A DNA stretch of 12,477 nucleotides, taken from UHGV virus genome UHGV-0072520; one strand, written 5' to 3'. A program made the position numbers and the translations under genes. Positions within the stretch are counted from its first letter, which is position 1; the number at the start of each line of letters is the position of its first letter. This stretch comes from a virus. This document shows positions 1 through 12,477 of the stretch, piece after piece. The notes beneath the pieces were generated by a model that saw nothing but the letters and a program-made list of their open reading frames with translations, was not told the DNA's origin and searched no databases.

Positions 1-49
1 AGACTTGGATGATAGACTTCATGCCTTTGATTATTAGCTGATAGAAGAA

Positions 50-412
50 ATGTTAAAGCTATTTGCAAAGTACACCTCGATTGGTGTGCTGAACACACTT
101 ATACACTGGGTGGTTTTTGGTGTATGTATTTATGCCGCGCATACAAATCAGGCTCTGGCAAACTTCGCAGGTTTCATAGTAGCTGTGAGCTTTAGCTTCT
201 TCGCGAATGCAAGATTCACATTCAAAGCATCGACTACAACGATGCGCTACATGTTATACGTGGGATTCATGGGAACCTTGAGTGTTGTCGTCGGGTGGGC
301 TGCTGATAGATGTGCACTTCCCCCAATGGTCACCCTTATCACTTTCTCCGCCATCAGCCTGGTGTGCGGTTTCGTATATTCAAAGTTCATTGTCTTTAGG
401 GATGCGAAATGA
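50..412 (+). CDS. gtrA: GtrA, bactoprenol-linked glucose translocase (flippase), small polytopic membrane protein
   Basis: 120-aa hydrophobic ORF; N- and C-terminal sequence ([24 protein letters not shown] ... [13 protein letters not shown]) recognised as GtrA of serotype-converting Shigella/E. coli phages. Its stop overlaps the next start (ATGA at 409-412), indicating translational coupling. Confidence 0.88.
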
Positions 413-1335
413 AGATATCTCTTGTAGTTCCTGTCTTCAATGAAGAAGAAGCGATACCAATTTTTTATAAAACGGTACGTGAATTCGAAGAGTTGAAGCC
501 ATATGAGGTGGAAATTGTTTTCATAAATGACGGCAGCAAAGACTCTACAGAGTCAATAATTAACGCTCTGGCTGTTTCTGATCCGCTAGTTGTTCCGCTG
601 TCATTTACCAGAAACTTTGGTAAAGAACCTGCGCTGTTCGCTGGTCTTGATCACGCAACTGGTGAGGCGATTATCCCGATTGACGTTGACTTACAGGATC
701 CAATAGAAGTTATTCCTCACCTGATTGAGAAATGGCAACAAGGTGCGGACATGGTTCTGGCTAAACGCTCTGACCGCTCTACTGATGGTCGATTGAAGCG
801 CAAAACAGCTGAGTGGTTCTATAAGCTACATAATAAAATAAGCAATCCGCAAATTGAGGAGAACGTCGGAGACTTCCGTCTGATGTCTCGTGAAGTAGTT
901 GAAAATATCAAGCTTTTACCCGAGCGTAATCTGTTCATGAAAGGTGTGCTTAGCTGGGTTGGCGGCCGTACTGATGTTGTCGAATATGCACGCGCTGAGC
1001 GTGTTGCTGGTAGCACTAAATTCAACGGATGGAAGTTGTGGAATTTGGCACTTGAAGGAATAACCAGCTTCTCTACATTCCCATTACGCATCTGGACTTA
1101 CATCGGCCTTCTCGTTGCTGGAGTTTCGTTCCTTTACGGAGCTTGGATGATTATTGACACACTTGCATTTGGTAATGCTGTCAGAGGCTATCCTTCCCTT
1201 CTCGTTTCCATATTATTCCTTGGTGGAATTCAGCTAATCGGCATTGGTGTTTTAGGGGAATATATTGGAAGAATTTATGTAGAAGCAAAACATCGCCCAA
1301 GATATTTAATTAAAAAGGAAAAACATGAAAAATAA
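409..1335 (+). CDS. gtrB: GtrB, bactoprenol glucosyltransferase (GT2 family)
   Basis: 308-aa ORF beginning [20 protein letters not shown] with FINDGSKD and DVDLQDP motifs typical of GT2 undecaprenyl-phosphate glucosyltransferases, plus C-terminal transmembrane segments; directly follows gtrA. Confidence 0.9.
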
Positions 1336-2629
1336 TAACACACATATAATGATAATCATATATGCTTTAGTTATATGCATGCTTACATCAAATGTTTTTA
1401 TGATTAATACTAGTGATTTTTACAGATCGGTATTTCCTTTCATAGGTGAAATAAATACATTTGATGGAAATCTAACACTAAATTATGAATTAAAAAAAGA
1501 TTTTTTGAGTGTTTTCTCCTATGATTACATTAGCTCTTATAGTTACATCTTATATATTTATGCTTATATTATTTCTTTCTTTACAAATTATTTAGATTTG
1601 AGATTGCTATCAAGTATTCTTAAGATTATTTTTATAATAACATTATACTCATTATTTAGAAATATCACCAAGGAAAATGGCGCTAAATTTTTGGCGATAT
1701 TTTTCATAATCGCTCTCCCTATGCTATCAACCTCAAACCTAGCATTCTTCTCATCTTTTTATCAAGAGCAAATAGTAATCATAGCATTACCAATAGTCTC
1801 TTTATTTATAAGCGGCAATAATAAAAAAGATATACTCATTACTTTCATAGCTGCCACCCTCATAGCTTGCTCAAAGAGCCAGTTCTTTTACCTTCCGTTA
1901 ATAATAGCAATAGCTTATGGCATATTTAATCGAGATATGTTTAAGTTTAAAATTTTATTAACAGTTTTATCAATGTCGCTTTCTTTAATGTGCATTTGGG
2001 GTTCCTCTGGTGCGGCAGCATTTAATAAATACCATGCAAATTATTTTGGTATATATGAATATGCAAAAATCAATAATATTGAGATCGAACAAAACGTAGA
2101 CCAAAAATGCATTGGCGTAGATGCGTGGGGAAATAAATTTAATCTAGAACATGGAGCTATACAAACAACTTTAGGTGGCGATTGTTTTGGTAGAAATACT
2201 TCTGCTGGTTTCGTCGATGTAATTAGATGGGTCGCTAAAAACCCCAGCATTATTTATAATCTTCCAGTTGATGCCGGGATTAAAACACAATATACTGAAA
2301 ATTATTTCCATGTATTTAATGGAATAAAATTAATACAGGGGAATACAGGGGCATTGTCATACTTAACTGAAGTCAAGGATTATTTATTTAAAGATCTTAG
2401 GTTTGTTATTTTATTCATTACAATGTTGTTATCAATCATCTTCATTAGAAAGAAACTCTCAATTTTACTCTTTACCGTATGCTCGTTTGGGACATCACAG
2501 TTATACGTCTCTTTTTTTGGCGAGGGTTACAGAGATTTAGACAAACATCTTTTCGGGATGAATTTCGCATTCGACTTAACTATATTTATCGTGATGTGTC
2601 TTTTAGTTAGATTAAAATTCAAAAAATAA
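1325..2629 (+). CDS. Type-specific O-antigen glucosyltransferase (GtrC-type), polytopic membrane protein; serotype specificity undetermined
   Basis: 434-aa highly hydrophobic ORF immediately after gtrAB, the canonical position of the type-specific gtr gene. Strikingly AT-rich compared with flanking DNA. Start overlaps the gtrB stop by 11 nt; an alternative in-frame ATG lies at 1349. Confidence 0.72.
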
Positions 2630-2660
2630 AATATTGCTGCGCCATGATTAACATGGCGCA
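2621..2660 (-). terminator. Intrinsic terminator between convergent gtrC and tailspike genes
   Basis: Perfect 9-bp inverted repeat tgcgccatg / catggcgca (2638-2646 and 2652-2660) with 5-nt loop attaa. The + strand A-run at 2621-2636 gives a U-tract for - strand transcripts just past the tailspike stop. May act weakly on + strand transcripts too. Confidence 0.5.
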
Positions 2661-2666
2661 AATTAC

Positions 2667-4628
2667 TCACCAGTCTGCTAAAACTATCGCCCCACGCATA
2701 AATGCACGGTAAAAAGGAGATTCCCCTGCAGGGAAGCTGAAATGGAGAACTGGTGCTTCCCCAACAGCGTAATAATCTTCCGGTTTGAATCCAAACATAA
2801 ACGTTTGGCTTGAAGAAAGAGTCACACTTGCAATATCTTGATAGCGAATACCGTCTTTGCTTTTACCCATAAGAAAAAGTCCGTTTATAGGATTCCCGCC
2901 ATTAAGATTGGATATCTCAAGCCAAGCCCCTACGCCCTTACTGTAGCTACTGCAAAGACATAGAGATGCATCAGAAGTTTTAAAAGCAACTCCACTGACA
3001 TCGACTCCTTGCTGGGTGGTTTCATGGTCCCCATCACCAGAGCCACTTAATATCCTAGTTGGCCATGCATTCTTCGTAATTGTCTGGTCACTTGAGCTTG
3101 GATCCGCAGGCATAACATCCTTAAGCAATTCCTGTAGTGGCCAATGTTTACCACTGCCGGCTCCACCAAATAGATAGGTCTTTGTTTTTAGCTGTCTTGG
3201 ATAAGACTTGGATGCTAGTTTAGTAACTAACTCTTGAAGTATTCGATTAGTGCGTATCCTGTCAGTAATACCTGGGTCAGCTTCACCATCCCATACAAAT
3301 GCACCAAAATTCCCATTGCCCGCAGCGCCAAATATTTCAGCGCCTCCAACTACCTGATCAATATCACCACTTATATTGCTTCCACTAAATAGAAACGCAC
3401 CAACTACAGGGATAACATTAGGAATTTCAGTCATTTTGGAAATTACACCAAAATCTAATCTCATTTTCACAAGATCGGCGTTAATTCTGGTTTGTAAATC
3501 TCCTGTTGCAGCAGTTGAATATGAGTTAACTAAAGCCAGATCATAATTTTTTGAATACCATTGATTGAACGGTCCGCCAGGAGGAAGTTGGCACACCATA
3601 AGCAATGTTTTGTTTGTAACACTACGAAGAGTTTCAATCTTTGCATCCTGATCTGCAACACTGATCCCTCTAGCGCCTGGCTCGTCATATACTGCATATG
3701 CTACAACCGCAGGATGAGTGTCTATGGATTTAACAAAACTTGGCAGATCAGATATAGCAAGCGGGTCTTGTTCGGTTCCGATAGAAACTTTTAGACCTGC
3801 TGTTAAAGCATTATCTAATAACTTAAACTTGTCGCCTTCATCATCTACAGAACCACTAAACCCCAAATAATGGTGGATACTATTAAATCCTAATTGCTTT
3901 ATAAATAACAACTCAGCCAAGTCATAAGCAGAGCTAACGTAACAAATTTTCACTTTTGCATCGAAAGATACATCTACTTCTGAAGTCGCTAATATTGATC
4001 CAAGATTGTAGCGAGTCGTGTTAATCTTAAAATTACCGATTAATTTCTGCCCCTTAGATTTCAGCTTTTTTGTGATTTTATACTCTTTGTCTTTGATTCC
4101 TACAACATCCTTCCCAGTATCAAATGCAGCCTGAATGGCGTCTGACCAATCATCATCAACAACAAGATTTGCATAATCTTCGATGTAAGCATATACATCA
4201 CTACGCTTATTAAGGTTGTCTATATCAGTCTGCTTTGCGGCCCCATTTACTAAATCCACACCACCAGGTGCAGCAAGCTCCTGTCTTAACTGATCAGGAT
4301 CGTACTTCAGCACATTAGGAAAATAGAATTGCTGTGCACCATACGCATCATAACCAGCCATAGAATGGCCTTGCACGGTAACGAATTTGGCAATCTGTCC
4401 GTTATATACAGGATAACCAGCAGCGTTAATGATGATTGGTTGAGAAACAGGAACGTGAGAGCCGTCTTCGTTCTCTATATAAACCTGAATCTGGTTTTCA
4501 GGATTTACCGGGTCCGTGTCAATTTTACCGATATAAATTTTGCCATTGGCTACGGCTTTAAAAGAACGCGCCATAGTGAAGAGTTGCGATGGCATTGATA
4601 CGATCACATTGGCTGTAATGTCTGTCAT
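2667..4628 (-). CDS. Tailspike protein: P22-type N-terminal head-binding domain, divergent C-terminal receptor-binding/depolymerase domain
   Basis: 653-aa ORF. The first ~115 aa ([13 protein letters not shown] ... [38 protein letters not shown] ... [13 protein letters not shown] ... NVLKYDPDQ) closely resemble the conserved head-binding domain of P22/Sf6/HK620 tailspikes as I recall them. The remainder is not recognisably the P22 endorhamnosidase. RBS GGAG lies 8 nt upstream of the ATG on the - strand. Confidence 0.85.
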
Positions 4629-4686
4629 TTAATTTGCTCCAGATACAAGGAATAGCCGCAGCATGGCTACGGTGAATTTTGGGCAT

Positions 4687-4709
4687 AAAAAAACCCAGCC
4701 GAAGCTGGG
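4687..4709 (-). terminator. Intrinsic terminator (- strand) upstream of the tailspike gene
   Basis: Stem cccagc / gctggg (4694-4699 and 4704-4709) with loop cgaa. Seven A's at 4687-4693 on the + strand give a U7 tract directly after the hairpin on the - strand. Confidence 0.5.
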
Positions 4710-4761
4710 TCGTTGCGTTGGTTATCTGTCAGTAGTTATGTACTGGCTGAAGGATTTGTAC

Positions 4762-4792
4762 AAAAAAACCACCTGACGGTGGGTTAATTTTT
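4762..4792. terminator. Putative bidirectional intrinsic terminator
   Basis: Stem ccacc / ggtgg (4769-4773 and 4778-4782) with loop tgac, flanked by an A7 run upstream (4762-4768) and ttaattttt downstream (4784-4792), so either strand gets a U-rich tail. Confidence 0.45.
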
Positions 4793-4810
4793 GCATTTAC
4801 CTGGGCCATA

Positions 4811-4839
4811 TTGACTACTTATAAAATGAGATCAATATT
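4811..4839 (+). promoter_or_regulatory. Candidate sigma70 promoter for the small + strand gene
   Basis: TTGACT (4811-4816), 17-nt spacer, AATATT (4834-4839); the -35 matches consensus at 5 of 6 positions and the -10 at 4 of 6. Lies about 35 nt upstream of the ATG at 4876. By-eye match only. Confidence 0.3.
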
Positions 4840-4875
4840 TAATCGCCCAATAATGGGTGTATGTTGAGGTATATC

Positions 4876-5055
4876 ATGGCGAAAAAACCAGGTGAAAACA
4901 CAGGAAAAAACGGCGGAATATACCAAGAAGTTGGCCCACGCGGCGGTAAGAAAGACAATTTTGCCACCGTCAAGGACAACGAAAGGCTTCCACCAACAAC
5001 AAAGCCAGGTCATGGCTGGGTATTGGATAAGCGAACTCCAGACAGCAAAAAGTAA
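4876..5055 (+). CDS. Small YjzC-like protein (function unknown)
   Basis: 59-aa ORF MAKKPGENTGKNGGIYQEVGPRGG ... LPPTTKPGHGWVLDKRTP. The G-x-Y-x-E-V-G ... W ... KRTP pattern resembles the YjzC-like small-protein family as I recall it. GAGG RBS 5 nt upstream of the ATG at 4876 (the ORF track's upstream ATG at 4861 lacks an RBS). A terminator follows. Confidence 0.5.
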   Translation: MAKKPGENTGKNGGIYQEVGPRGGKKDNFATVKDNERLPPTTKPGHGWVLDKRTPDSKK

Positions 5056-5061
5056 TAATCA

Positions 5062-5084
5062 AGCCGGGTCACTCCGGCTTTTTG
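5062..5084 (+). terminator. Intrinsic terminator after the YjzC-like gene
   Basis: Stem agccgg / ccggct (5062-5067 and 5074-5079) with loop gtcact, followed by a T5 run. It overlaps the 3' end of the convergent - strand gene, so it may serve both. Confidence 0.55.
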
Positions 5085-5434
5085 ATATGTCGCTCGCAGA
5101 ACTCAACAAGCCTGCTCATTAAGTAGCAGTAAGTCTCGTTGGCTCTTCCTGGTTCAACATCAACACCTACCCTTGAGCAGATATCGAATGCCATGTGAGC
5201 GCACTCATGGGCAATAGTAGATAGTTTGCCATTGAACACGCCTATCACATGCAAAACACCATTCTCGCTACTCATTGTATGAGACGCTCCGTTGGCGTCC
5301 GAGTCATGCACGTCAACGCCAAGTTTTTGATGCAGGCGTTGCCATTCTGGAAAGTCTCTACAAAACACAATTGTACCGCTCTCAAAGAGCGGAACGAGCA
5401 TCTTTGGTACGTTTCCAATGTTAACTTTTTTCAT
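5069..5434 (-). CDS. Hypothetical protein with HExxH zinc-metallopeptidase-like motif
   Basis: 121-aa ORF containing IAHECAHMAFD (H-E-x-x-H) followed by several Cys/His residues (DICS, YCY, FCERH) that could complete a metal site. AGGA RBS 4 nt upstream of the ATG on the - strand. No family assignment possible without a search. Confidence 0.55.
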   Translation of the reverse strand: MKKVNIGNVPKMLVPLFESGTIVFCRDFPEWQRLHQKLGVDVHDSDANGASHTMSSENGVLHVIGVFNGKLSTIAHECAHMAFDICSRVGVDVEPGRANETYCYLMSRLVEFCERHIKKPE

Positions 5435-5468
5435 GGTATCCTGCGCAAAACTAAGGAGAGTTAATTAT

Positions 5469-5954
5469 ATGAAAAAACCACTGTTAATTATCCCGCTTCT
5501 GCTGGCTGGGTGCGCAAAAGTAAGCGACTATCAGGCAAGTTGCGAGCAACGCTATCCAAAGCTTAGCGATATGGCTAATTGCCTTGATGCCAGCTTGAAG
5601 AACGACTCTCGCATGGCATCAGCACCAACACCTAAGCTGTATGTCCTTGCTGCGAAGATGCTCGGGCAAGGTGTCGATGAAGGCAAGATAAGTGACACAC
5701 AGGCAAGACTTGAACTTCAGAATCTTTATGTTCAATTACAAAGCCAAGAACAAGCACAACAAATAGCACAAAGCCAAGCATTCCAGCAGGCTTTATTGAA
5801 TTATCAGGCTGTAAACACAATGCAAGCGATCGAGCAAAAAGCGCGCCAGCCTGTTATAACTCAACCTTACCCAACACGCGTTGACACATATACAAACTGC
5901 AATTCAGGATTTGGAAACACGGTAACATGCAACAGTAGCAGTAATATCAGGTAG
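5469..5954 (+). CDS. Prophage-encoded lipoprotein, predicted outer-membrane localisation
   Basis: N-terminus MKKPLLIIPLLLAGC has a classic signal peptide plus LAGC lipobox, and Ala at +2 argues against inner-membrane retention. GGAG RBS about 10 nt upstream of the ATG at 5469 (the ORF-track start at 5418 adds an unlikely extension with no RBS). Gln-rich predicted helical middle; 161 aa. Confidence 0.7.
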   Translation: MKKPLLIIPLLLAGCAKVSDYQASCEQRYPKLSDMANCLDASLKNDSRMASAPTPKLYVLAAKMLGQGVDEGKISDTQARLELQNLYVQLQSQEQAQQIAQSQAFQQALLNYQAVNTMQAIEQKARQPVITQPYPTRVDTYTNCNSGFGNTVTCNSSSNIR

Positions 5955-5968
5955 TTACATCTTATCTT

Positions 5969-7816
5969 TTATTGCTGTTCTGCTGTAATTTGGCTTGAAA
6001 GTATAGGGCGTATCGCATTTGCAGCATTATTTAGCGCTCTTTCATAGGCTGGTGTTCCTGCTTTGGTGTTTGCCAAACGTAAGAGAGCATTCCTTGCTGC
6101 TTTTGACTCATACAAGCGCATCATTGCACCGAAACCAGCCTCAAGCCCCATTGATACGCCAAGAGTCGCAGTTGCGCCAATCGTCCTTATCCTGTTGGCT
6201 TGCGATTGCCCCGTCTGAGTTACTACATTTGCGGTGTCTGACCTTGCTGTTTGCTGTAGAACTTCATGAAGAGAATCAAGCTCTTTCATGTGCTTTCCAG
6301 AAAAAATAGTGTTGTAAATTTCACCGCCTGACTGAGATTTCAGCTTATTAACTTCAGTGATGAACTTGGCTGGAGAGTCCCCGGCCTTTTCCGCTATTTT
6401 GCTGACGTAAGCTGCACGCATAGCATCTTTCCCCTTATCATCCAGTGCGCTCCAGATTCGTTTCACGTCAGATGGTTTTCTGCTTAATACAACGGTATTT
6501 ATAAGTTCAGGACTGGCTTCACTGCTTGCCTTGTTGAGCTTGTTGGCAATGTTTTTATTAAGCACCTTATTATAAACGTTTGCATAATCGGAATTTGCTT
6601 TAAGGTATTTTGCTGCGTCTGATGCACCGAGGTTTTTAGCAACTGCGTTACGAAGGTCTTTTGACATTGCATTCTCTACCATATTGGTAGCTGCTTTTGC
6701 CTGGTTGGGGAAGACCATAGCATCTCCCTGAACATTAGATCTAAATGCTGTTCTGTGCTGACGCAAGAGATCAAACGTAACATCCAAATCAGTTGCAGGG
6801 TTTGCTAATTCTTCACGTAGGTTACGCAAGGATGTAAGCAGGCTTTGATTGGCAGACGTCCCAAGCCGTTCCTGTCTTGCGATCGCTGTATTCAGAGCAT
6901 TCATGGTATTTGTTGTATCAACTGCGGCATTACCCATTTTATTGGTGACGTCATTGATAACAGCGCCAGCGGCATCCTTCCGTCCCCTTAACGTGGTGGT
7001 CAGAGATTTCACCACATCATCAGGGTTGTACTCACCAAAACGGTCAAAATAATTACTTACCAGTTTACTACGCGTTGCATATTGCTCCGCTCGCTTTGAT
7101 CCTGTCCCGAGCAAAGCCCCCTCGGCATCCTGAGTAAGGCCGCGAGTGAAAGCATTTTTCGGTGGGATGACATCAGATGTCATTGGCGTCACACCCATTG
7201 ATTCTGAGGTGGCAATTTTTTTCGCTACTTCTGGCGCGATATCGCCTTTTATAGCCGTTATTCCACGCCCTATTCCCTTTGCTGCTGCGGAAAGAACACC
7301 CTGAGCGGCAAGGTTAACTCCGGCATTTTTAGCTGCATTTTGTGCGAAATCGCCTTTCTGATTTGCGGCCTCTGCCAGTGAGCCAATAGCCATGCTTCCT
7401 GCCGTTCCAACTCCTGGAACTAAATACCCGCCAATTGTTTCTCCAGCTTGCGCATAAGGGTCTGTCGGTCGATCGACAGGGCGATAAACATCATCCAAAA
7501 CCTTGGGGCCACCAAGCCCCTGGCTGATTGCATTAATCAGACTTGCGCCACCCTGCAATACGTCAAATGGTATGTTTACCAGACCACGACCAGCCTGTTC
7601 TGCAATTTGCCCTGCACTTTGACCACCAGTGAGCCAATCGCCAGCTTGTTGCATCAATGATGGTTCTTCCCGTGTTGGTGCATTATTGGCCTGATTAACT
7701 GTTTGTTGCTGAACAGCCTGACCAGCAAAATACTCATCAATGGCGGTGCCAATATCTTCGGTGCTCGTACCATCAGGAAAGGTAAATGTCTTACCGTTTG
7801 CAGTTACTTTCATCAT
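5969..7816 (-). CDS. Ejection (DNA-transfer/injection) protein, P22 gp16-like
   Basis: 615-aa Ala/Gly/Gln-rich ORF without obvious enzymatic motifs, upstream of and co-oriented with the tailspike, matching the position and approximate size of P22 gene 16. Start overlaps the upstream stop (ATGA at 7813-7816). Assignment is by synteny and composition, not verified homology. Confidence 0.6.
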
Positions 7817-8805
7817 TCCACCGTAAATTGAATGCCTGATTTTGAGGTATATGATCCGGATTGACTCTGCTGCTGTTGGGTATTTGTCGGTTGTTGGTTA
7901 TTGCTCTGTTGTTGACTATTTGCAGCACTTGAAACCACCAAAGCATCATAAACGCGACCAGACTGACCACGTAATGAGTTATATTGGCCCTGCATTTTTC
8001 GCATTTTTGTTTCAGTAGCAGCCTTGGAATCACCAGGCTGAGGCAGGTACATTTTGGAATACTCCTGCATCTCTGGCAGAGTAATTGCTGCACCTGTTTC
8101 TGGGCGCAAAATTGCATACAAGGCGTCTCTCGCATTTACCATATATTGCTGCTCCGCTGGTGATAGGCTTAAATTTGCAATAGTCCCATCACCAAGAGAG
8201 CGATTTATTAATGCAACTCGCTTAGGGTCAATGCTTTTACTAAGCTGATTCATTGAGTCCATTGAATCTTTTAATCGCAAAGCAAATCCTGCCGCCTTCT
8301 TGGAACCCTCATTAGCCTTATCTATGATGCTTTGCGCTTGTGGCAAACTAATTGGTTTAATGCCATCACCAGATATAGGTTGGTTTAGTTTTCCGGCTTC
8401 CTCGCTGCCATCGGTGTAATACTTAGTTACCGAGCCATCAGGATTGGTTTCAACCTTAAGTAATTTCTTAGCATTGGGATTAATTCCCGCCGCTGCCGCA
8501 AATGCCGCTGCACCATCTGGATCCGCCTTTAACATTTGCGCGTACTGATTGTAATTCTGCATTGCGACTGTTGGTGCATATGCTGACGTTAACGCATTTG
8601 CTCGGCTAATATCCTGCCCTCTCGCCTGAAGTGCCTCGCCAGCCTGATTGCTGCGGATTGTCTCTGCCAGTCTGCCTCGGTCAATCTCACGACCAGCCAT
8701 CTTGTCCTGAACAGCAAACGCCTTTTCTGGTCCAAGCGCACCGAGAGACATAGTAGTCAGCATGTGTGATAGCTGCTCTGGATTCTGGATACCTGTCTGA
8801 ATCAT
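7813..8805 (-). CDS. Ejection protein, P22 gp20-like, apparently missing its 5' end
   Basis: 330-aa ORF from the first ATG, but the frame stays open upstream to 8919 with no start codon, which suggests the N-terminal coding part was deleted. Translationally coupled to the gp16-like gene. Assignment is by synteny. Confidence 0.5.
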
Positions 8806-8835
8806 CCAGTCAGCATTAGCACCAACGCGATTTAA

Positions 8836-9192
8836 CCTGTCCTTGTTGTCAGTAATGAATTTACTGTAGGCTTCCGGTCCCTGAGAAAGAGCGACGTTAC
8901 CGTAATAGTCCCCTGTCGGTTAGGGAAGCTGCGTGTTGAGCTGGAAGCAACAGAGAACAACCTCATTGATAGTGAATGCCATGTTGCTGAACTGGAAGAA
9001 GCACTACGCGACAAGCAGGCGTTACTTGAAGCCTCAGAAAAGCGCATAGCAGAACAAAGCTCGATTGTTACAGCCGCTGAAAAACTGGTTCGCTGTAAAG
9101 GCCGCTATCACAGTGAGCAAAACTATCGTGCGCTGGCTGCATTGTTTGGCGTAACAGTGCCGGATTTACCACCACTGCAAGCAGATGATTAA
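8836..9192 (+). pseudogene. 3' fragment of an early-region gene (coiled-coil C-terminus), no start codon
   Basis: Open frame 8836-9189 with no ATG/GTG/TTG start. It encodes ...KLRVELEATENNLIDSECHVAELEEALRDKQALLEASEKRIAEQ...LFGVTVPDLPPLQADD and ends 10 nt before the next gene with operon-like spacing (AAGGA RBS at 9191-9195). Confidence 0.35.
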
Positions 9193-9202
9193 GGACTAAC
9201 CT

Positions 9203-9775
9203 ATGACCACTATTACCAAAGAGCGACTACTGACAATCAAGCAGTGGCGCGAAACATACGGACCTGGTAGCAACGTTGTACTGCCAGCAGAAGAAGCGGA
9301 AGAACTGGCACGAATTGCTCTGGCATCGCTGGAAGCAGAACCTGTAAGCCAAACTTACAACTTGCCACAAACGCACTTTGAACAGGTTGCTGACCTTTAC
9401 GAAATGCAATTTGATGACGGACGCACTTGTGCCTTTCATACTGATGCACAAAAGGCTGCGCAATGGCTTCGGGCATGCGACGGAAACAGGGTTCAGGAAT
9501 ACGTGAAACTGGAGCGACTGCAGAACGCGCTATCGGGCAACTCTCCGGTAATTCCGGATAGTTGGATAAGCTGTAGTGAGCGAATGCCGGAAAAGAATCA
9601 GAACGTGCTTATTTCGGTGAATTTCGATAGCTCTCTGGTTGAACCGCTAATATGCTCCGCACGCTATACCGGAAGCACCTTTCGGCGCGGAGATGCAACG
9701 ATTAAGCCGGGTAATGGTATTGAGCAAGCAACTCACTGGATTCCGCTACCGGAACCGCCGCAGGAGGCGAAATGA
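9203..9775 (+). CDS. DUF551-like phage early protein
   Basis: 190-aa ORF whose C-terminus (WISCSERMPEKNQNVLI ... ATHWIPLPEPP) matches the DUF551 signature common in lambdoid/P22-like early regions, as I recall it. AAGGA RBS 7 nt upstream. Confidence 0.68.
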   Translation: MTTITKERLLTIKQWRETYGPGSNVVLPAEEAEELARIALASLEAEPVSQTYNLPQTHFEQVADLYEMQFDDGRTCAFHTDAQKAAQWLRACDGNRVQEYVKLERLQNALSGNSPVIPDSWISCSERMPEKNQNVLISVNFDSSLVEPLICSARYTGSTFRRGDATIKPGNGIEQATHWIPLPEPPQEAK

Positions 9776-10032
9776 TGGATGTAAAAGAGAAGGTTTTGCA
9801 GGTGATGCGTTCCCGGGCTGCCCTGCAAGATAAAGCTCTCGGCGGGGAATATCCATTCAGAATGGCAACCTGGAATTTGCGGTTGGCAATGGAGAAGGAA
9901 TTTCCTGATGAAGAATGGCGTTCGGCAGATTTGCGCAAAATTCTTATGGAGATTGCTAAAGACGGAACAGTATCTAAAGATAACCATGCCAGCCGGATTG
10001 GTCAGGCGGTATGGAGACTGGAGGTGCGGTAA
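9772..10032 (+). CDS. Hypothetical small phage protein
   Basis: 86-aa ORF; start overlaps the upstream stop (ATGA at 9772-9775), indicating translational coupling within the early operon. Confidence 0.55.
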   Translation: MMDVKEKVLQVMRSRAALQDKALGGEYPFRMATWNLRLAMEKEFPDEEWRSADLRKILMEIAKDGTVSKDNHASRIGQAVWRLEVR

Positions 10033-10313
10033 TGGCTAACCTGCAACTTGCCGTCAAAGGTGAATACTTCGATGCCATGATTCGCGGAGATAAAACGGAA
10101 GAGTATCGCCTGTGTAATGACTACTGGAATAAGCGAATTATGTTCCGGGAATATGACCGCCTGATTATCACAAAGGGATATCCGAAGCGCGACGACTCCA
10201 GTCGCAGAATTGATGTTCCGTATGGAGGATATGAAGTGAAAACAATCACACACCCCCACTTCGGTGATAAGCCGGTAAAGGTATACGCGATAAAGGTGAA
10301 TATCAATTGCTAA
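10032..10313 (+). CDS. ASCH/PUA-like domain protein
   Basis: N-terminus MANLQLAVKGEYFDAMIRGDKTEEYRL resembles the ASCH-domain signature (compare E. coli YqfB ...FQDDILAGRKTITIRD). Start chosen at the ATG overlapping the upstream stop (TAATG) with GGAGGTG 7 nt upstream. The ORF-track start at 10011 lies inside the previous gene. Confidence 0.58.
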   Translation: MANLQLAVKGEYFDAMIRGDKTEEYRLCNDYWNKRIMFREYDRLIITKGYPKRDDSSRRIDVPYGGYEVKTITHPHFGDKPVKVYAIKVNINC

Positions 10314-10424
10314 ATTAGTGGCATAGCATAAAGATGCTTGCATTAATGAAGTGTGTATAATAACGCCTCATCAATTGTAAACTACTGAAATAGCAAAAAA
10401 TGCATATTAAAGAGGATTCGAAAA

Positions 10425-10616
10425 TTGAAAATGTTCATGCAAATAGACAGACGCATAGATCTTAATGGCAATTCATACTTAGTTAGATGCGAAGAGAGGC
10501 CTAACGGTGAGTGGCGTGTATATGATATTGACCGTAAGATCAATATCAGCACCATGAACAAAGACACTGCCTTTGATGAATGGAAAGCTGAAGCTAAAAA
10601 ACAACATAATTCGTAG
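10425..10616 (+). CDS. Hypothetical small protein
   Basis: 63-aa ORF. AGAGGA at 10411-10416 is well spaced for the TTG at 10425; ATGs at 10431 and 10437 are alternatives. Followed by a terminator. Confidence 0.42.
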   Translation: MKMFMQIDRRIDLNGNSYLVRCEERPNGEWRVYDIDRKINISTMNKDTAFDEWKAEAKKQHNS

Positions 10617-10658
10617 AATTACAAAAACCCTAACCAATTGATGGATTTCTTTTATCTG

Positions 10659-10683
10659 AACTCGCTACGGCGAGTTTTGTTTT
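10659..10683 (+). terminator. Intrinsic terminator
   Basis: 7-bp stem aactcgc / gcgagtt with loop tacg, followed by ttgtttt. Confidence 0.55.
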
Positions 10684-10695
10684 ATGGAGATGATT

Positions 10696-10995
10696 ATGGC
10701 CTGTTCAACATTCAACCCTCTAACGTTACAGAAATACCAGCCAGCCCCTGAAGATTTATGCTCACTGTGTGGCGGAAATCATGGTAAAGCCGCCATGATT
10801 GAATGTAAGGACAAAATCCACATTTGCCTTAATTGCGTTGATGTCCTCGTTGATATCAAAAATGAGAGAGAAGATAAAAAGCGTAGCGAGGCTGTTCGAG
10901 CCTTAGATTCATGGATGCGAGATGGGTATAGTGCCGCGCAAATTTATGACTTAGCAATATCAAAAGGCGAAATACCAGGAGTGCGCATCGAATAA
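10696..10995 (+). CDS. Cys-rich small protein, possible zinc-ribbon
   Basis: ORF with paired CxxC motifs (CSLCGG ... CLNC) separated by about 18 residues. Start chosen at the ATG at 10696 with GGAG 6 nt upstream; the ORF track begins at 10684. Confidence 0.5.
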   Translation: MACSTFNPLTLQKYQPAPEDLCSLCGGNHGKAAMIECKDKIHICLNCVDVLVDIKNEREDKKRSEAVRALDSWMRDGYSAAQIYDLAISKGEIPGVRIE

Positions 10996-11035
10996 GACGT
11001 AACCAATATTTGTATTGAAGAACTGAAAGAACACC

Positions 11036-11061
11036 AAGCCGCCTGATGGCGGTTTATTTTT
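11036..11061 (+). terminator. Intrinsic terminator
   Basis: Stem ccgcc / ggcgg (11039-11043 and 11048-11052) with loop tgat, extendable by A-T pairs, followed by tttattttt. Confidence 0.55.
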
Positions 11062-11076
11062 GCCTGGAGAATTAAG

Positions 11077-11268
11077 ATGACCGATACCAGCCTGATTCCT
11101 GAGAAAGAAGTGATGAACAAGCTCGGTGTTTCATCACGTCAGACAATCTGGAACTATACCAAACGGCACGGATTTCCGAAGCCAGTCAGAACCCACCCCA
11201 AATCATACCTTCGTGAAGCTGTTGAGGGGTGGATTCTTAACGGTGGCGTTAATCAGAAATGCTCCTGA
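11077..11268 (+). CDS. AlpA-family phage transcriptional regulator / putative excisionase (HTH)
   Basis: 63-aa ORF MTDTSLIPEKEVMNKLGVSSRQTIWNYTKRHGFPKPV..., typical of AlpA/Xis-like small HTH proteins next to P4-type integrases. GGAG RBS at 11065-11068. Confidence 0.75.
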   Translation: MTDTSLIPEKEVMNKLGVSSRQTIWNYTKRHGFPKPVRTHPKSYLREAVEGWILNGGVNQKCS

Positions 11269-12427
11269 TGTGCCAGAACAATTTATCAGCGTGAAGCTCA
11301 TACGCTTTGCGCTGAGCCTCTATCCAGTCGTGTTTATTGTATACGGACATTATCCCGCCAAGTTCATGACCGAGCATTCGCTCAGTAACATGAGGCTCGA
11401 CATTCATCTCGGACAGACGTGTAACAAGCGTTCTTCTGAAATCATGTGTTCGCCAGTAACCTATATCCATCCCTCCCCTTATTCTATTTACGAATCGGTT
11501 GGCTGCAGCGATGCTGATCGGTTTGTTTATGTCTTCTCCAGGGAAAAGAACATCATTGTACGTTGTCATGGCCTTTTCGAGGAAAGGCTTAATTTGTTCG
11601 AAGATTGGACGGCGGATAACATTACCCATCTTGCTATGCTCTTTCGGTACGGTCCATACGTTTTCCAGCAGGTCAAATTCTGTCTTTTTTGCCAGCCTAA
11701 GCTCTGAGAGCCTCGCCCCCCACATCATAAGCATCTGATGAAGTAGCTTATTTGACGTAGACGCACGGCTTCTTTCAATAGCAAGCCAAATCTTAGCCAG
11801 TTCGTGATACGACAGTACCCGATCCCCTACCTCAGCGCGGGAGCCGAAGTCCCTTGGTTGGATGCTCATAATTGCGCAACTATCTATCAACTGACGCCGC
11901 ATGCACCAACTTATTGCTGACCTTAGTTGACTTAGCACCTGCCTTGCTCGGCGTGGATTATCTCTTTCTTCTTCGGTAAGCAGGTCAACCCATTGCTTAA
12001 CCGTGATAGAAGATGCCGGACGATTAGGAAAGGCGTCATGCATGCGCTTCATAACCGTTGATCGGTAAAGTGCCTGGGTCTTTTCTCTGAGAGTTGTAGA
12101 GACGTAGTTGTCGAACCAGTAGTCGAGACACTGGGCGACCGTCATGGAGTTCTCCACCTTCTCTTCAAAATAAGTGCGTGGATCCGTTCCTGAGAAATAG
12201 AGCTTTCGCAAGTCAGCAGTGATCTGTCTGGCATCCTTCAAAGACAGGGATGGGTATCGACCAAGCCCAAGTCGATTAGGCTTGCCATGCCAGCGATAGC
12301 GGTACTGGAACTGGATGACCCCCTTCGGTGAAATTCGTACGCTGAGGCCATCGGCATCAGCCACTTCTTGTGGGCCCGAATATGGTTTACCATAAATAGT
12401 ACGCAGTTTTGTGTCGCTTATAGCCAT
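11249..12427 (-). CDS. int: Tyrosine site-specific integrase, P4-type (DUF4102-like N-terminal arm-binding domain)
   Basis: 392 aa. N-terminus (SDTKLR ... DGLSVRISPKG ... YRYRWHGK ... LGLGRYPSLSLKDAR) fits the P4-family integrase pattern. C-terminal catalytic residues are visible: HDFRRT (H-x-x-R) and the tyrosine in MSVYNKHDW. Confidence 0.92.
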   Translation of the reverse strand: MAISDTKLRTIYGKPYSGPQEVADADGLSVRISPKGVIQFQYRYRWHGKPNRLGLGRYPSLSLKDARQITADLRKLYFSGTDPRTYFEEKVENSMTVAQCLDYWFDNYVSTTLREKTQALYRSTVMKRMHDAFPNRPASSITVKQWVDLLTEEERDNPRRARQVLSQLRSAISWCMRRQLIDSCAIMSIQPRDFGSRAEVGDRVLSYHELAKIWLAIERSRASTSNKLLHQMLMMWGARLSELRLAKKTEFDLLENVWTVPKEHSKMGNVIRRPIFEQIKPFLEKAMTTYNDVLFPGEDINKPISIAAANRFVNRIRGGMDIGYWRTHDFRRTLVTRLSEMNVEPHVTERMLGHELGGIMSVYNKHDWIEAQRKAYELHADKLFWHIRSISD

Positions 12428-12435
12428 AAATAATA

Positions 12436-12477
12436 TTTGGTACGCTCAGAAATAATGGTTTGGTACACATCTGGTAC
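12436..12477. repeat. Three direct copies of TGGTAC just outside the integrase 5' end (possible arm-type sites)
   Basis: TTTGGTAC at 12436-12443 and 12459-12466, and TGGTAC at 12472-12477, all in direct orientation at the window edge. Confidence 0.25.

Follow-up and report, generated by a model that had tools for sequence, protein, structure and literature searches.

The tailspike gene and its locus

The DNA analysed here, a stretch of 12,477 nucleotides from the virus genome UHGV-0072520 (hereafter the window), corresponds over its whole length (positions 1–12477) to a single decayed P22-like prophage of ~12.4 kb. Downstream of its gp20- and gp16-like ejection-protein genes, at the prophage end and next to O-antigen modification genes, this remnant carries a tailspike gene whose open reading frame (ORF) is intact, with the ATG at position 4628 and the stop codon at positions 2667–2669 of the minus strand. 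The sequence GGAG is found 8 nt upstream of the ATG, and further upstream lie two terminator-like hairpins, each with a T-run. The gtrA, gtrB and gtrC-like genes converge on the tailspike gene (Table 1). The encoded protein is identical to protein cluster P0001 (59 member sequences), whose members bear the name 'phage head-binding domain-containing protein' (E. coli).

Table 1. Genes of the prophage remnant and segments of its tailspike, in window coordinates
Feature	Positions	Strand	Evidence
gtrA, 120 aa	50..412	+	Pfam PF04138, E 5e-14; yfdG/GtrA in matching genome
gtrB, 308 aa, bactoprenol glucosyltransferase	409..1335	+	Pfam PF00535 GT2, E 3e-31; yfdH in matching genome
gtrC-position gene, 434 aa, polytopic membrane protein	1325..2629	+	hydropathy scan
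Tailspike gene	2667..4628	-	653 aa + stop codon; ORF list and translation
Tailspike, C-terminal β-sandwich, residues 476–653, ending in a conserved Trp	2670..3203	-	AF2 strands 363–532 (domain numbering)
Tailspike, (β/α)8 TIM barrel, predicted, clan GH-A-like catalytic domain, residues 227–475	3204..3950	-	
Tailspike, D315-E316-P317, C-terminal end of barrel strand 4	3678..3686	-	translation; E316 is the proposed general acid/base
Tailspike, linker, neck helix (~133–145) and small α/β domain with a 16-residue motif, residues 114–226	3951..4289	-	AF2 secondary structure
Tailspike, P22/Sf6-type head-binding (particle-attachment) domain, residues 1–113	4290..4628	-	Pfam PF09008, PDB sequence matches
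Small accessory gene 1, 121-aa protein with a HECAH motif	5069..5434	-	PHROG 1365 (function unknown)
Small accessory gene 2, 178-aa predicted lipoprotein, Gln-rich	5418..5954	+	PHROG 6067 (function unknown)
P22 gp16-like DNA transfer (ejection) protein, upstream late-operon neighbour	5969..7816	-	PHROG 770 'DNA transfer protein', E 5e-280
gp20-like ejection protein, N-terminally truncated	7813..8805	-	PHROG 917 profile positions 162–509; Pfam Inj_translocase 151–217 of 218
Early-region ORF, 103 aa	10684..10995	+	PHROG 3680 (function unknown)
Prophage integrase, other end of the remnant	11249..12427	-	Pfam PF13356 and PF00589

A P22-type head-binding domain followed by an exchangeable module

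Residues 1–113 of the tailspike align with the full length of the Pfam Head_binding model (PF09008, positions 1–113 of 113; expect value (E) 1.1e-65). In a PDB sequence search, residues 1–118 closely match Sf6 gp14 (7sg7, E 4e-64), and the N-terminus also matches P22 tailspike chains, including 1lkt, 2xc1 and 8tvr; all the Sf6 and P22 alignments end at residues 109–118. These matches bear out an earlier reading of the same DNA made from its letters alone (the sequence-only reading), which had assigned the N-terminal ~115 residues to the particle-binding domain of P22, Sf6 and HK620. According to that reading, the remaining ~540 residues lack the endorhamnosidase and β-helix signatures of P22, and our searches agree: beyond residue ~118 no Pfam match was obtained even at E up to 10, neither NCBIfam nor a single-sequence PDB search returned a match for the C-terminal part, and residues 216–653 had none in PHROGs. 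Its description of the receptor-binding domain as unrecognised thus holds for sequence libraries but not for the fold class, which had already been predicted in tailspikes of Acinetobacter phages (PMC11823257, PMC11058221). The label 'colanic acid degradation' attached to phrog_8280 was dropped as a functional clue, this match spanning only residues 1–200.

A search of 5.8 billion proteins returned 104 homologues. Among them the same ~530-residue module is borne by varied virion adaptors, such as the P22 head-binding domain, N-termini of the PF18668 TSP1/gp66 type and that of a T7 fibre; such variety typifies receptor-binding modules that are exchanged between phages. An exhaustive phmmer search of 1.84 billion cluster representatives found 134 family clusters only, nearly all of 500–900 residues with the module at the C-terminus; judged from these sequences, the family looks small and phage-specific. 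The closest relatives of the receptor domain (64–86% identity, clusters P0002–P0006) are 745-residue 'phage tail fiber proteins' from strains of the Enterobacter cloacae complex, whose N-terminal adaptor differs from that of the window tailspike. At the sequence level, this similarity indicates that the module was recently exchanged between phages of different genera.

Predicted fold and relatives in other phages

Residues 120–653 were modelled as a monomer with AlphaFold2 (AF2), using a 76-sequence alignment as input; the model is of high confidence, with a mean predicted local distance difference test (pLDDT) score of 92.7 and a predicted TM-score (pTM) of 0.90. It displays, in this order, a neck helix, a small α/β domain, eight β-α units (residues ~227–475), which form a predicted (β/α)8 or triosephosphate isomerase (TIM) barrel, and a β-sandwich (residues ~476–653). 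The right-handed parallel β-helix that serves as receptor-binding/endoglycosidase domain in P22-like tailspikes is absent from this model, and a β-helix endorhamnosidase was rejected on two grounds, the lack of homology and the different predicted fold. The sequence-only reading had allowed for a different glycosidase fold; prediction and Foldseek comparison now give this suggestion a precise form, a TIM barrel resembling those of glycoside hydrolase (GH) clan GH-A, with a β-sandwich appended.

The segment between the head-binding domain and the barrel (residues 114–226) aligns with the region that lies just before the catalytic domain of β-helix tailspikes (CBA120 TSP3, 9vvr), and two residues of its small α/β domain, D160 and Q194, do not vary among 76 homologues. 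More specifically, this small domain (residues ~150–215) carries the motif D-x-x-x-A-I-Q-A-A-F-x-T-G-K, which aligns with the cap preceding the β-helix in the same spikes, and a match to the Pfam family Pectate_lyase_3 is recorded for two homologues. The small domain may be a vestige of a β-helix spike onto which the barrel was grafted. A related tailspike gene of E. coli, here called CUPF06-type, is 92.8% identical in nucleotides to the window gene up to nt 581 (~residue 194), where the match ends, so that an exchange boundary falls inside residues 114–226. Note that a profile search of the whole PDB was dominated by matches to N-terminal adaptors (CBA120 and others), the sole match to the barrel being the marginal one to β-glucuronidase described below. 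At the other end of the protein, G546, G646 and W653 are conserved in the C-terminal sandwich, and Foldseek matches the latter to a structure of family 16 carbohydrate-binding modules (CBM16, 2zex) and to mannanase-plus-CBM architectures; the modelled sandwich is probably a carbohydrate-binding or trimerisation module.

Tblastn searches of phage genomes found relatives in Escherichia phage TH27 and Dickeya phage Monomax (43% and 41% identity, respectively) and, at 25–33%, in the Acinetobacter phages Aci07, Bestia, IME284, APK26 and AB3P2, the identity with Aci07 being 30% over 93% of the domain. The family profile matches APK26 gp48 with an E of 5e-44 and Bestia gp53 with one of 9e-72, both matches spanning the barrel and the sandwich, the latter in full or for the greater part, and Foldseek against BFVD gives a TM-score of 0.85 to the Aci07 depolymerase model. 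The window tailspike therefore resembles the TIM-barrel depolymerases both in predicted (β/α)8 fold and in homology across barrel and sandwich (Aci07, APK26, Bestia). The tailspikes of APK26, AB3P2, Aci07 and Bestia are predicted TIM barrels of a rare 'transglycosidase-domain' type (PMC11058221, PMC11823257) and, as stated in a review (PMC11126041, citing Kasimova 2021), APK26 gp48 cuts the K26 capsule by a hydrolytic mechanism; the bond that it cleaves is not stated in the Aristophanes or Friunavirus papers. The fold class is known but rare in phage depolymerases, with one biochemically characterised relative. An end-to-end alignment with a characterised tailspike of known specificity had been named by the sequence-only reading as evidence that would go against it, and APK26 gp48 comes close to providing one (profile positions 10–399 of 441), at ~25% identity, a level at which specificity is not transferable.

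A conserved putative acid/base site without a strand-7 nucleophile

An 11-residue motif (positions 3663–3695), in which the sequence-only reading had seen a hint of a glycosidase, turns out to end barrel strand 4 and to contain the tripeptide D315-E316-P317, placed where the N-E-P of the clan GH-A acid/base sits. Conservation was counted in 207–208 homologues, some of them as low as 25% identical to the window tailspike. E316 is present in all 207 sequences, D315 in 206/207 and P317 in 203/207; Y370 in strand 6 (208/208) and W446 in strand 8 (197/207) are similarly conserved. The family profile pairs 'YsvyDEPatrg' with 'WSIANEPDTRP' of E. coli β-glucuronidase (GUS, uidA), and the Tyr of its 'vDSY' (Y370) with GUS Y468; this match has an E of 0.046 in the whole-PDB profile search, and the alignment was redone directly against E. 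coli uidA. In GUS, E413 is the acid/base and E504 marks the position of the strand-7 nucleophile. The predicted (β/α)8 barrel of the tailspike thus has a Glu at the end of strand 4, as does the barrel of clan GH-A enzymes with their acid/base, and, judging from the alignment and the predicted fold, E316 is likely to be the general acid/base.

Clan GH-A enzymes also carry a nucleophilic Glu where strand 7 ends, and this residue is missing across 208 sequences. At the end of this strand (residues 405–411, VIPVVGA), position 410 is G, S, Q or A in 208/208, with no conserved acid nearby; APK26 gp48 and Bestia gp53 likewise keep the D-E-P and have no strand-7 acid. Because the strand-7 nucleophile is absent and an invariant Asp directly precedes the catalytic Glu, our leading suggestion for the mechanism, which we regard as possible though doubtful, is that the barrel uses substrate-assisted catalysis at a β-linked N-acetylhexosamine (HexNAc), as GH20 and GH123 do. 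The β-N-acetylhexosaminidases of these two families have an adjacent Asp-Glu catalytic pair and do without an enzymic nucleophile.

Association with O4 Escherichia coli

In a set of 5426 complete E. coli genomes, the tailspike type of the window occurs once, in strain 160-11H1 (99.1% identity), and so does the window gtrC, in the same strain (100% identity). The O-antigen cluster of 160-11H1 comprises wzx and wzy annotated as O4-family, together with rmlBDAC and with fnlA/wbjC/wecB for the synthesis of L-N-acetylfucosamine (L-FucNAc). A full-length O4 wzy is present in 36 of the 5426 genomes, and the seven next-best nucleotide matches to the window tailspike gene, which encode P22-like tailspikes with the same module and ~49–50% overall identity, all fall within these 36. 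When the receptor-domain DNA of each variant was used as the query, the window type was found in 1 complete genome, the CUPF06-type in 15, the CAU16175-type in 4 and the P0009-type in 1 (as the second prophage of CUPF06), every one of them O4-wzy. Altogether, TIM-type P22-like spikes are present in 20 genomes, 20/20 of which are O4-wzy (hypergeometric P 4e-47). At least four TIM-type P22-like variants, 32–64% identical in the receptor domain, are found in O4-wzy E. coli, at three attachment sites.

The repeat units of the O4 antigen are reportedly joined through β-D-N-acetylglucosamine (β-D-GlcNAc), a linkage that would fit the hexosaminidase idea. Parts of the unit described in the literature are Glc-α1,3-FucNAc (PMC3789825) and FucNAc-α1,3-GlcNAc (PMC7685785), and the genes of the O4 cluster (rml, fnl and, at the wbuB position, one for a family-4 glycosyltransferase) agree with a unit that starts from GlcNAc (PMC7685785; PMC3789825).

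Interpretation and alternatives

The reading that we favour, and consider probable, is that the tailspike is the relic of an O4-specific endoglycosidase spike, in which a P22-type adaptor is joined to a GH-A-like TIM barrel, preserved in a P22-like prophage remnant. In the mechanism that we propose, the N-terminal 113 residues would anchor the spike to the virion tail in a P22-like temperate phage; beyond them would come the neck, the small domain, the putative clan GH-A-like TIM-barrel endoglycosidase and the C-terminal β-sandwich. The barrel would bind and cleave the host O-antigen, most likely that of E. coli O4, with E316 as presumed general acid/base, and this cleavage, by analogy with other P22-like tailspikes, would let the phage work its way down the lipopolysaccharide (LPS) layer. 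As regards the target taken by itself, we lean towards the view that the module, in the P22-like forms of E. coli, is directed against the O4 O-antigen.

Several observations nevertheless weigh against this interpretation. On the side of the target, megablast detects close variants only, and TIM-type spikes in other serogroups could be missed. In addition, the gene lies at sbcB-dacD in 14 of the 20 genomes, ~30–34 kb from wzy, a proximity through which linkage and clonal descent inflate the O4 association. If the association were entirely due to clonal descent and to the linkage between sbcB-dacD and the O-antigen cluster, the receptor could be some other surface polymer, such as a capsule or the enterobacterial common antigen (ECA), and it is true that the Acinetobacter phage relatives target capsules (PMC11126041). 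However, five genomes carry the gene at unlinked sites (CAU16175, ET151, ET450, ES9 and CUPF06; hypergeometric P 1e-11): argW-yfdC in the case of CAU16175 and of the P0009-type locus, where ET151, ET450, ES9 and the second prophage of CUPF06 were placed on account of lying ~360 kb away from wzy, and bioA-ybhB in the case of the CUPF06 prophage. The prophages at these sites lie 0.36–1.4 Mb from wzy and represent three variants; their hosts, of pig, frog and sediment origin, are all O4-wzy. Moreover, each spike is followed by one or more opposite-strand genes, and those that are recognisable, a gtr cluster or an Acyl_transf_3/SGNH O-acetyltransferase, belong to O-antigen modification. A receptor other than the O4 antigen therefore seems to us quite improbable.

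On the side of catalysis, the fold is a monomer prediction, and the geometry of the residues is deduced from the order of secondary-structure elements and from one profile alignment, that with GUS, which is weak alone. Furthermore, the window tailspike and its nearest relatives carry Cys346 and Asn368 at positions that are acidic in ~85% and ~73% of homologues, respectively; these two positions probably line the binding site, and their substitution could mean an altered or reduced activity. Together with the missing nucleophile, they would fit a C-terminal domain that merely binds polysaccharide, either as a lectin-like receptor-binding module devoid of catalysis or as a derivative that has lost its activity. 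We consider this very unlikely, since the D-E-P, Y370 and W446 are kept at catalytic-type positions down to 25% identity, as expected of a conserved active site, and since APK26 gp48, which has the same motifs, depolymerises the K26 capsule according to the review mentioned above (PMC11126041). A stronger competitor, although still an unlikely one, is a conventional retaining or inverting glycosidase that draws its second carboxylate from a non-canonical position and cleaves a non-HexNAc linkage of the O-antigen, rhamnosidic or glucosidic for instance. All close structural neighbours of the domain are indeed two-carboxylate GH-A enzymes, endorhamnosidases occur among other P22-like spikes (P22, Sf6), and two acidic positions could be called upon: D447, which follows strand 8 and is acidic in ~90% of 207 homologues, and D236, which follows strand 1 and is Asp in 168/190. 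Yet D447 and D236 vary, in contrast to the invariant D315, E316 and Y370, and no homologue has an acid at the strand-7 position by which clan GH-A is defined. A lyase, the annotation of a structural neighbour from phage PE3-1, was also considered and rejected, as the O4 antigen is not known to contain uronic acid and a hydrolytic action is reported for APK26 gp48.

Modification genes next to the spikes

The three genes that converge on the tailspike gene make up a Gtr cassette, with GtrA, a GtrB of the GT2 family and a polytopic membrane protein at the gtrC position (Table 1); the gtrABC neighbours announced by the sequence-only reading are thus in place. GtrA is the presumed flippase of the glucose-lipid carrier. 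The gtrC-position product has roughly eight or more predicted membrane segments (overlapping windows merged) and a large loop (residues 229–352); it matches PHROG 22908 (E 2e-105) and reaches 64 bits with the NCBIfam model of the WsfD hexose transferase, below the cutoff of 80. From these sequence features we propose that it is a serotype-specific O-antigen hexosyltransferase. By analogy with P22, Sf6 and SfV, the gtrA, gtrB and gtrC-like products would glucosylate the O-antigen of the lysogen and thereby change the receptor. The sequence-only reading had taken tailspike and gtr genes together as a record of the receptor specificity of the ancestral phage and of the matching exclusion mechanism; this is consistent with the genome data, in which spike and gtrC occur only in an O4-wzy strain, and from which we infer both the specificity and the exclusion.

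Other members of the group have other neighbours. In UPEC132, an O4 uropathogenic strain, the sbcB-dacD site holds a truncated CUPF06-type spike beside gtrA, gtrB and gtrC. This gtrC (positions 8648–9910 of its locus) shows no detectable similarity to that of the window, and the comparison of the two sequences suggests two different side-chain modifications of O4. In the P0009-type prophage (PQIM01000057), an Acyl_transf_3/SGNH O-acetyltransferase comes next to the spike on its downstream side, and after the CUPF06-type and CAU16175-type spikes come unknown proteins of 314 and 374 residues, whose genes have no Pfam match. Different spike variants travel with different O-antigen-modifying genes within one serogroup. 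Such paired gtr or acetylase cassettes could explain the heterogeneity of O4 subtypes; a literature search found no paper on O4 glucosylation or gtrS.

State of the prophage

From the integrase gene, the remnant runs through a few early genes, DUF551 among them, to a truncated gp20 and to gp16, and then through a pair of small accessory genes to the spike gene and the gtr genes; no head, lysis, replication or immunity genes were found in the window. The gp20 homologue lacks its first ~160 residues, which marks an internal deletion (junction at about 8805–9203). In strain 160-11H1, a sister remnant that is 99.5% identical over 50% of the window occupies sbcB-dacD; its internal deletion differs from that of the window, and the same integrase lies beside sbcB. 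UPEC132 harbours another with a different deletion, where the gtr genes are kept even though the spike is truncated. In a remnant prophage, the tailspike cannot serve a virion, and it is probably a still-intact passenger beside selectable gtr genes.

Two small genes on opposite strands occupy the region that carries sieA, mnt, arc and ant in P22 (Table 1); they may be lysogenic-conversion or exclusion genes. The 103-residue product of the early-region ORF weakly resembles ClpX in its N-terminal zinc-binding domain (E 0.002–0.004).

Implications

Pfam, PHROG and NCBIfam contain no model of the module family, none of its members has a solved structure, and it may constitute a new GH family with unusual chemistry. 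A more ambitious proposal, to which we give rather little credence, combines the elements discussed above. The family would be an unclassified GH family in which a GH-A barrel lost its nucleophile, changed its N-E-P into D-E-P and became a substrate-assisted endo-β-N-acetylhexosaminidase; in E. coli it would form a dedicated O4 spike, the four variants of which co-diversified with O4-modifying cassettes. If this were true, these cassettes, with two unrelated gtrC genes and an O-acetyltransferase, would make a phage–host arms race visible within one serogroup and around a vaccine antigen. O4 is a major serogroup of extraintestinal pathogenic E. coli (ExPEC) and a component of ExPEC O-antigen conjugate vaccines. 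An O4-specific depolymerase, if this is what the spike is, would be of use as a typing and glyco-analytical reagent, and the interest of the system would rise further should the nucleophile-less D-E chemistry and the O4 arms race hold.

Comparison with known tailspikes and glycosidases

With the tailspikes of P22, Sf6 and HK620, the window tailspike shares the PF09008 head-binding domain, the place of its gene, which follows those of the ejection proteins and converges with O-antigen modification genes at the end of the prophage, and the presumed role of an O-antigen-cleaving adsorption organelle. The sequence similarity ends at ~residue 118, and the receptor-binding domains of P22, Sf6 and HK620 are right-handed parallel β-helices, whereas that of the window tailspike is predicted to be a TIM barrel plus β-sandwich. 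To our knowledge, all the structurally characterised P22-like tailspikes are β-helices, and we found no report in the literature of a TIM-barrel module on a P22-type head-binding domain; the combination would mean that this adaptor accepts a wholly different catalytic architecture.

Compared to the clan GH-A enzymes (GH164, GH5, GH42, GH2, GH35), the window domain shows ~10% identity and no Pfam GH model matches it. The motif at the end of strand 4 is N-E-P in the clan and D-E-P in the window family, and the position of the strand-7 nucleophile of the clan is occupied by neither Glu nor Asp in any of the 208 homologues. The adjacent Asp-Glu pair that closes a strand of the predicted barrel and the apparent lack of an enzymic nucleophile recall GH20 and GH123. 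These two families, however, are not among the top structural neighbours of the window domain and have no sequence similarity to it, so that a shared mechanism can only be conjectured.

The Acinetobacter phage spikes APK26 gp48, AB3P2 gp17, Aci07 gp45 and Bestia gp53 resemble the window tailspike in having the D-E-P and the Tyr of strand 6 but no acid in strand 7, and their fold, like that of the window tailspike, is known from prediction alone. The adaptors differ, being Friunavirus or myovirus anchors in the former and the P22 head-binding domain in the latter, and so do the substrates: the K26 capsule of A. baumannii for APK26 and, presumably, the O-antigen of E. coli for the tailspike of the window.

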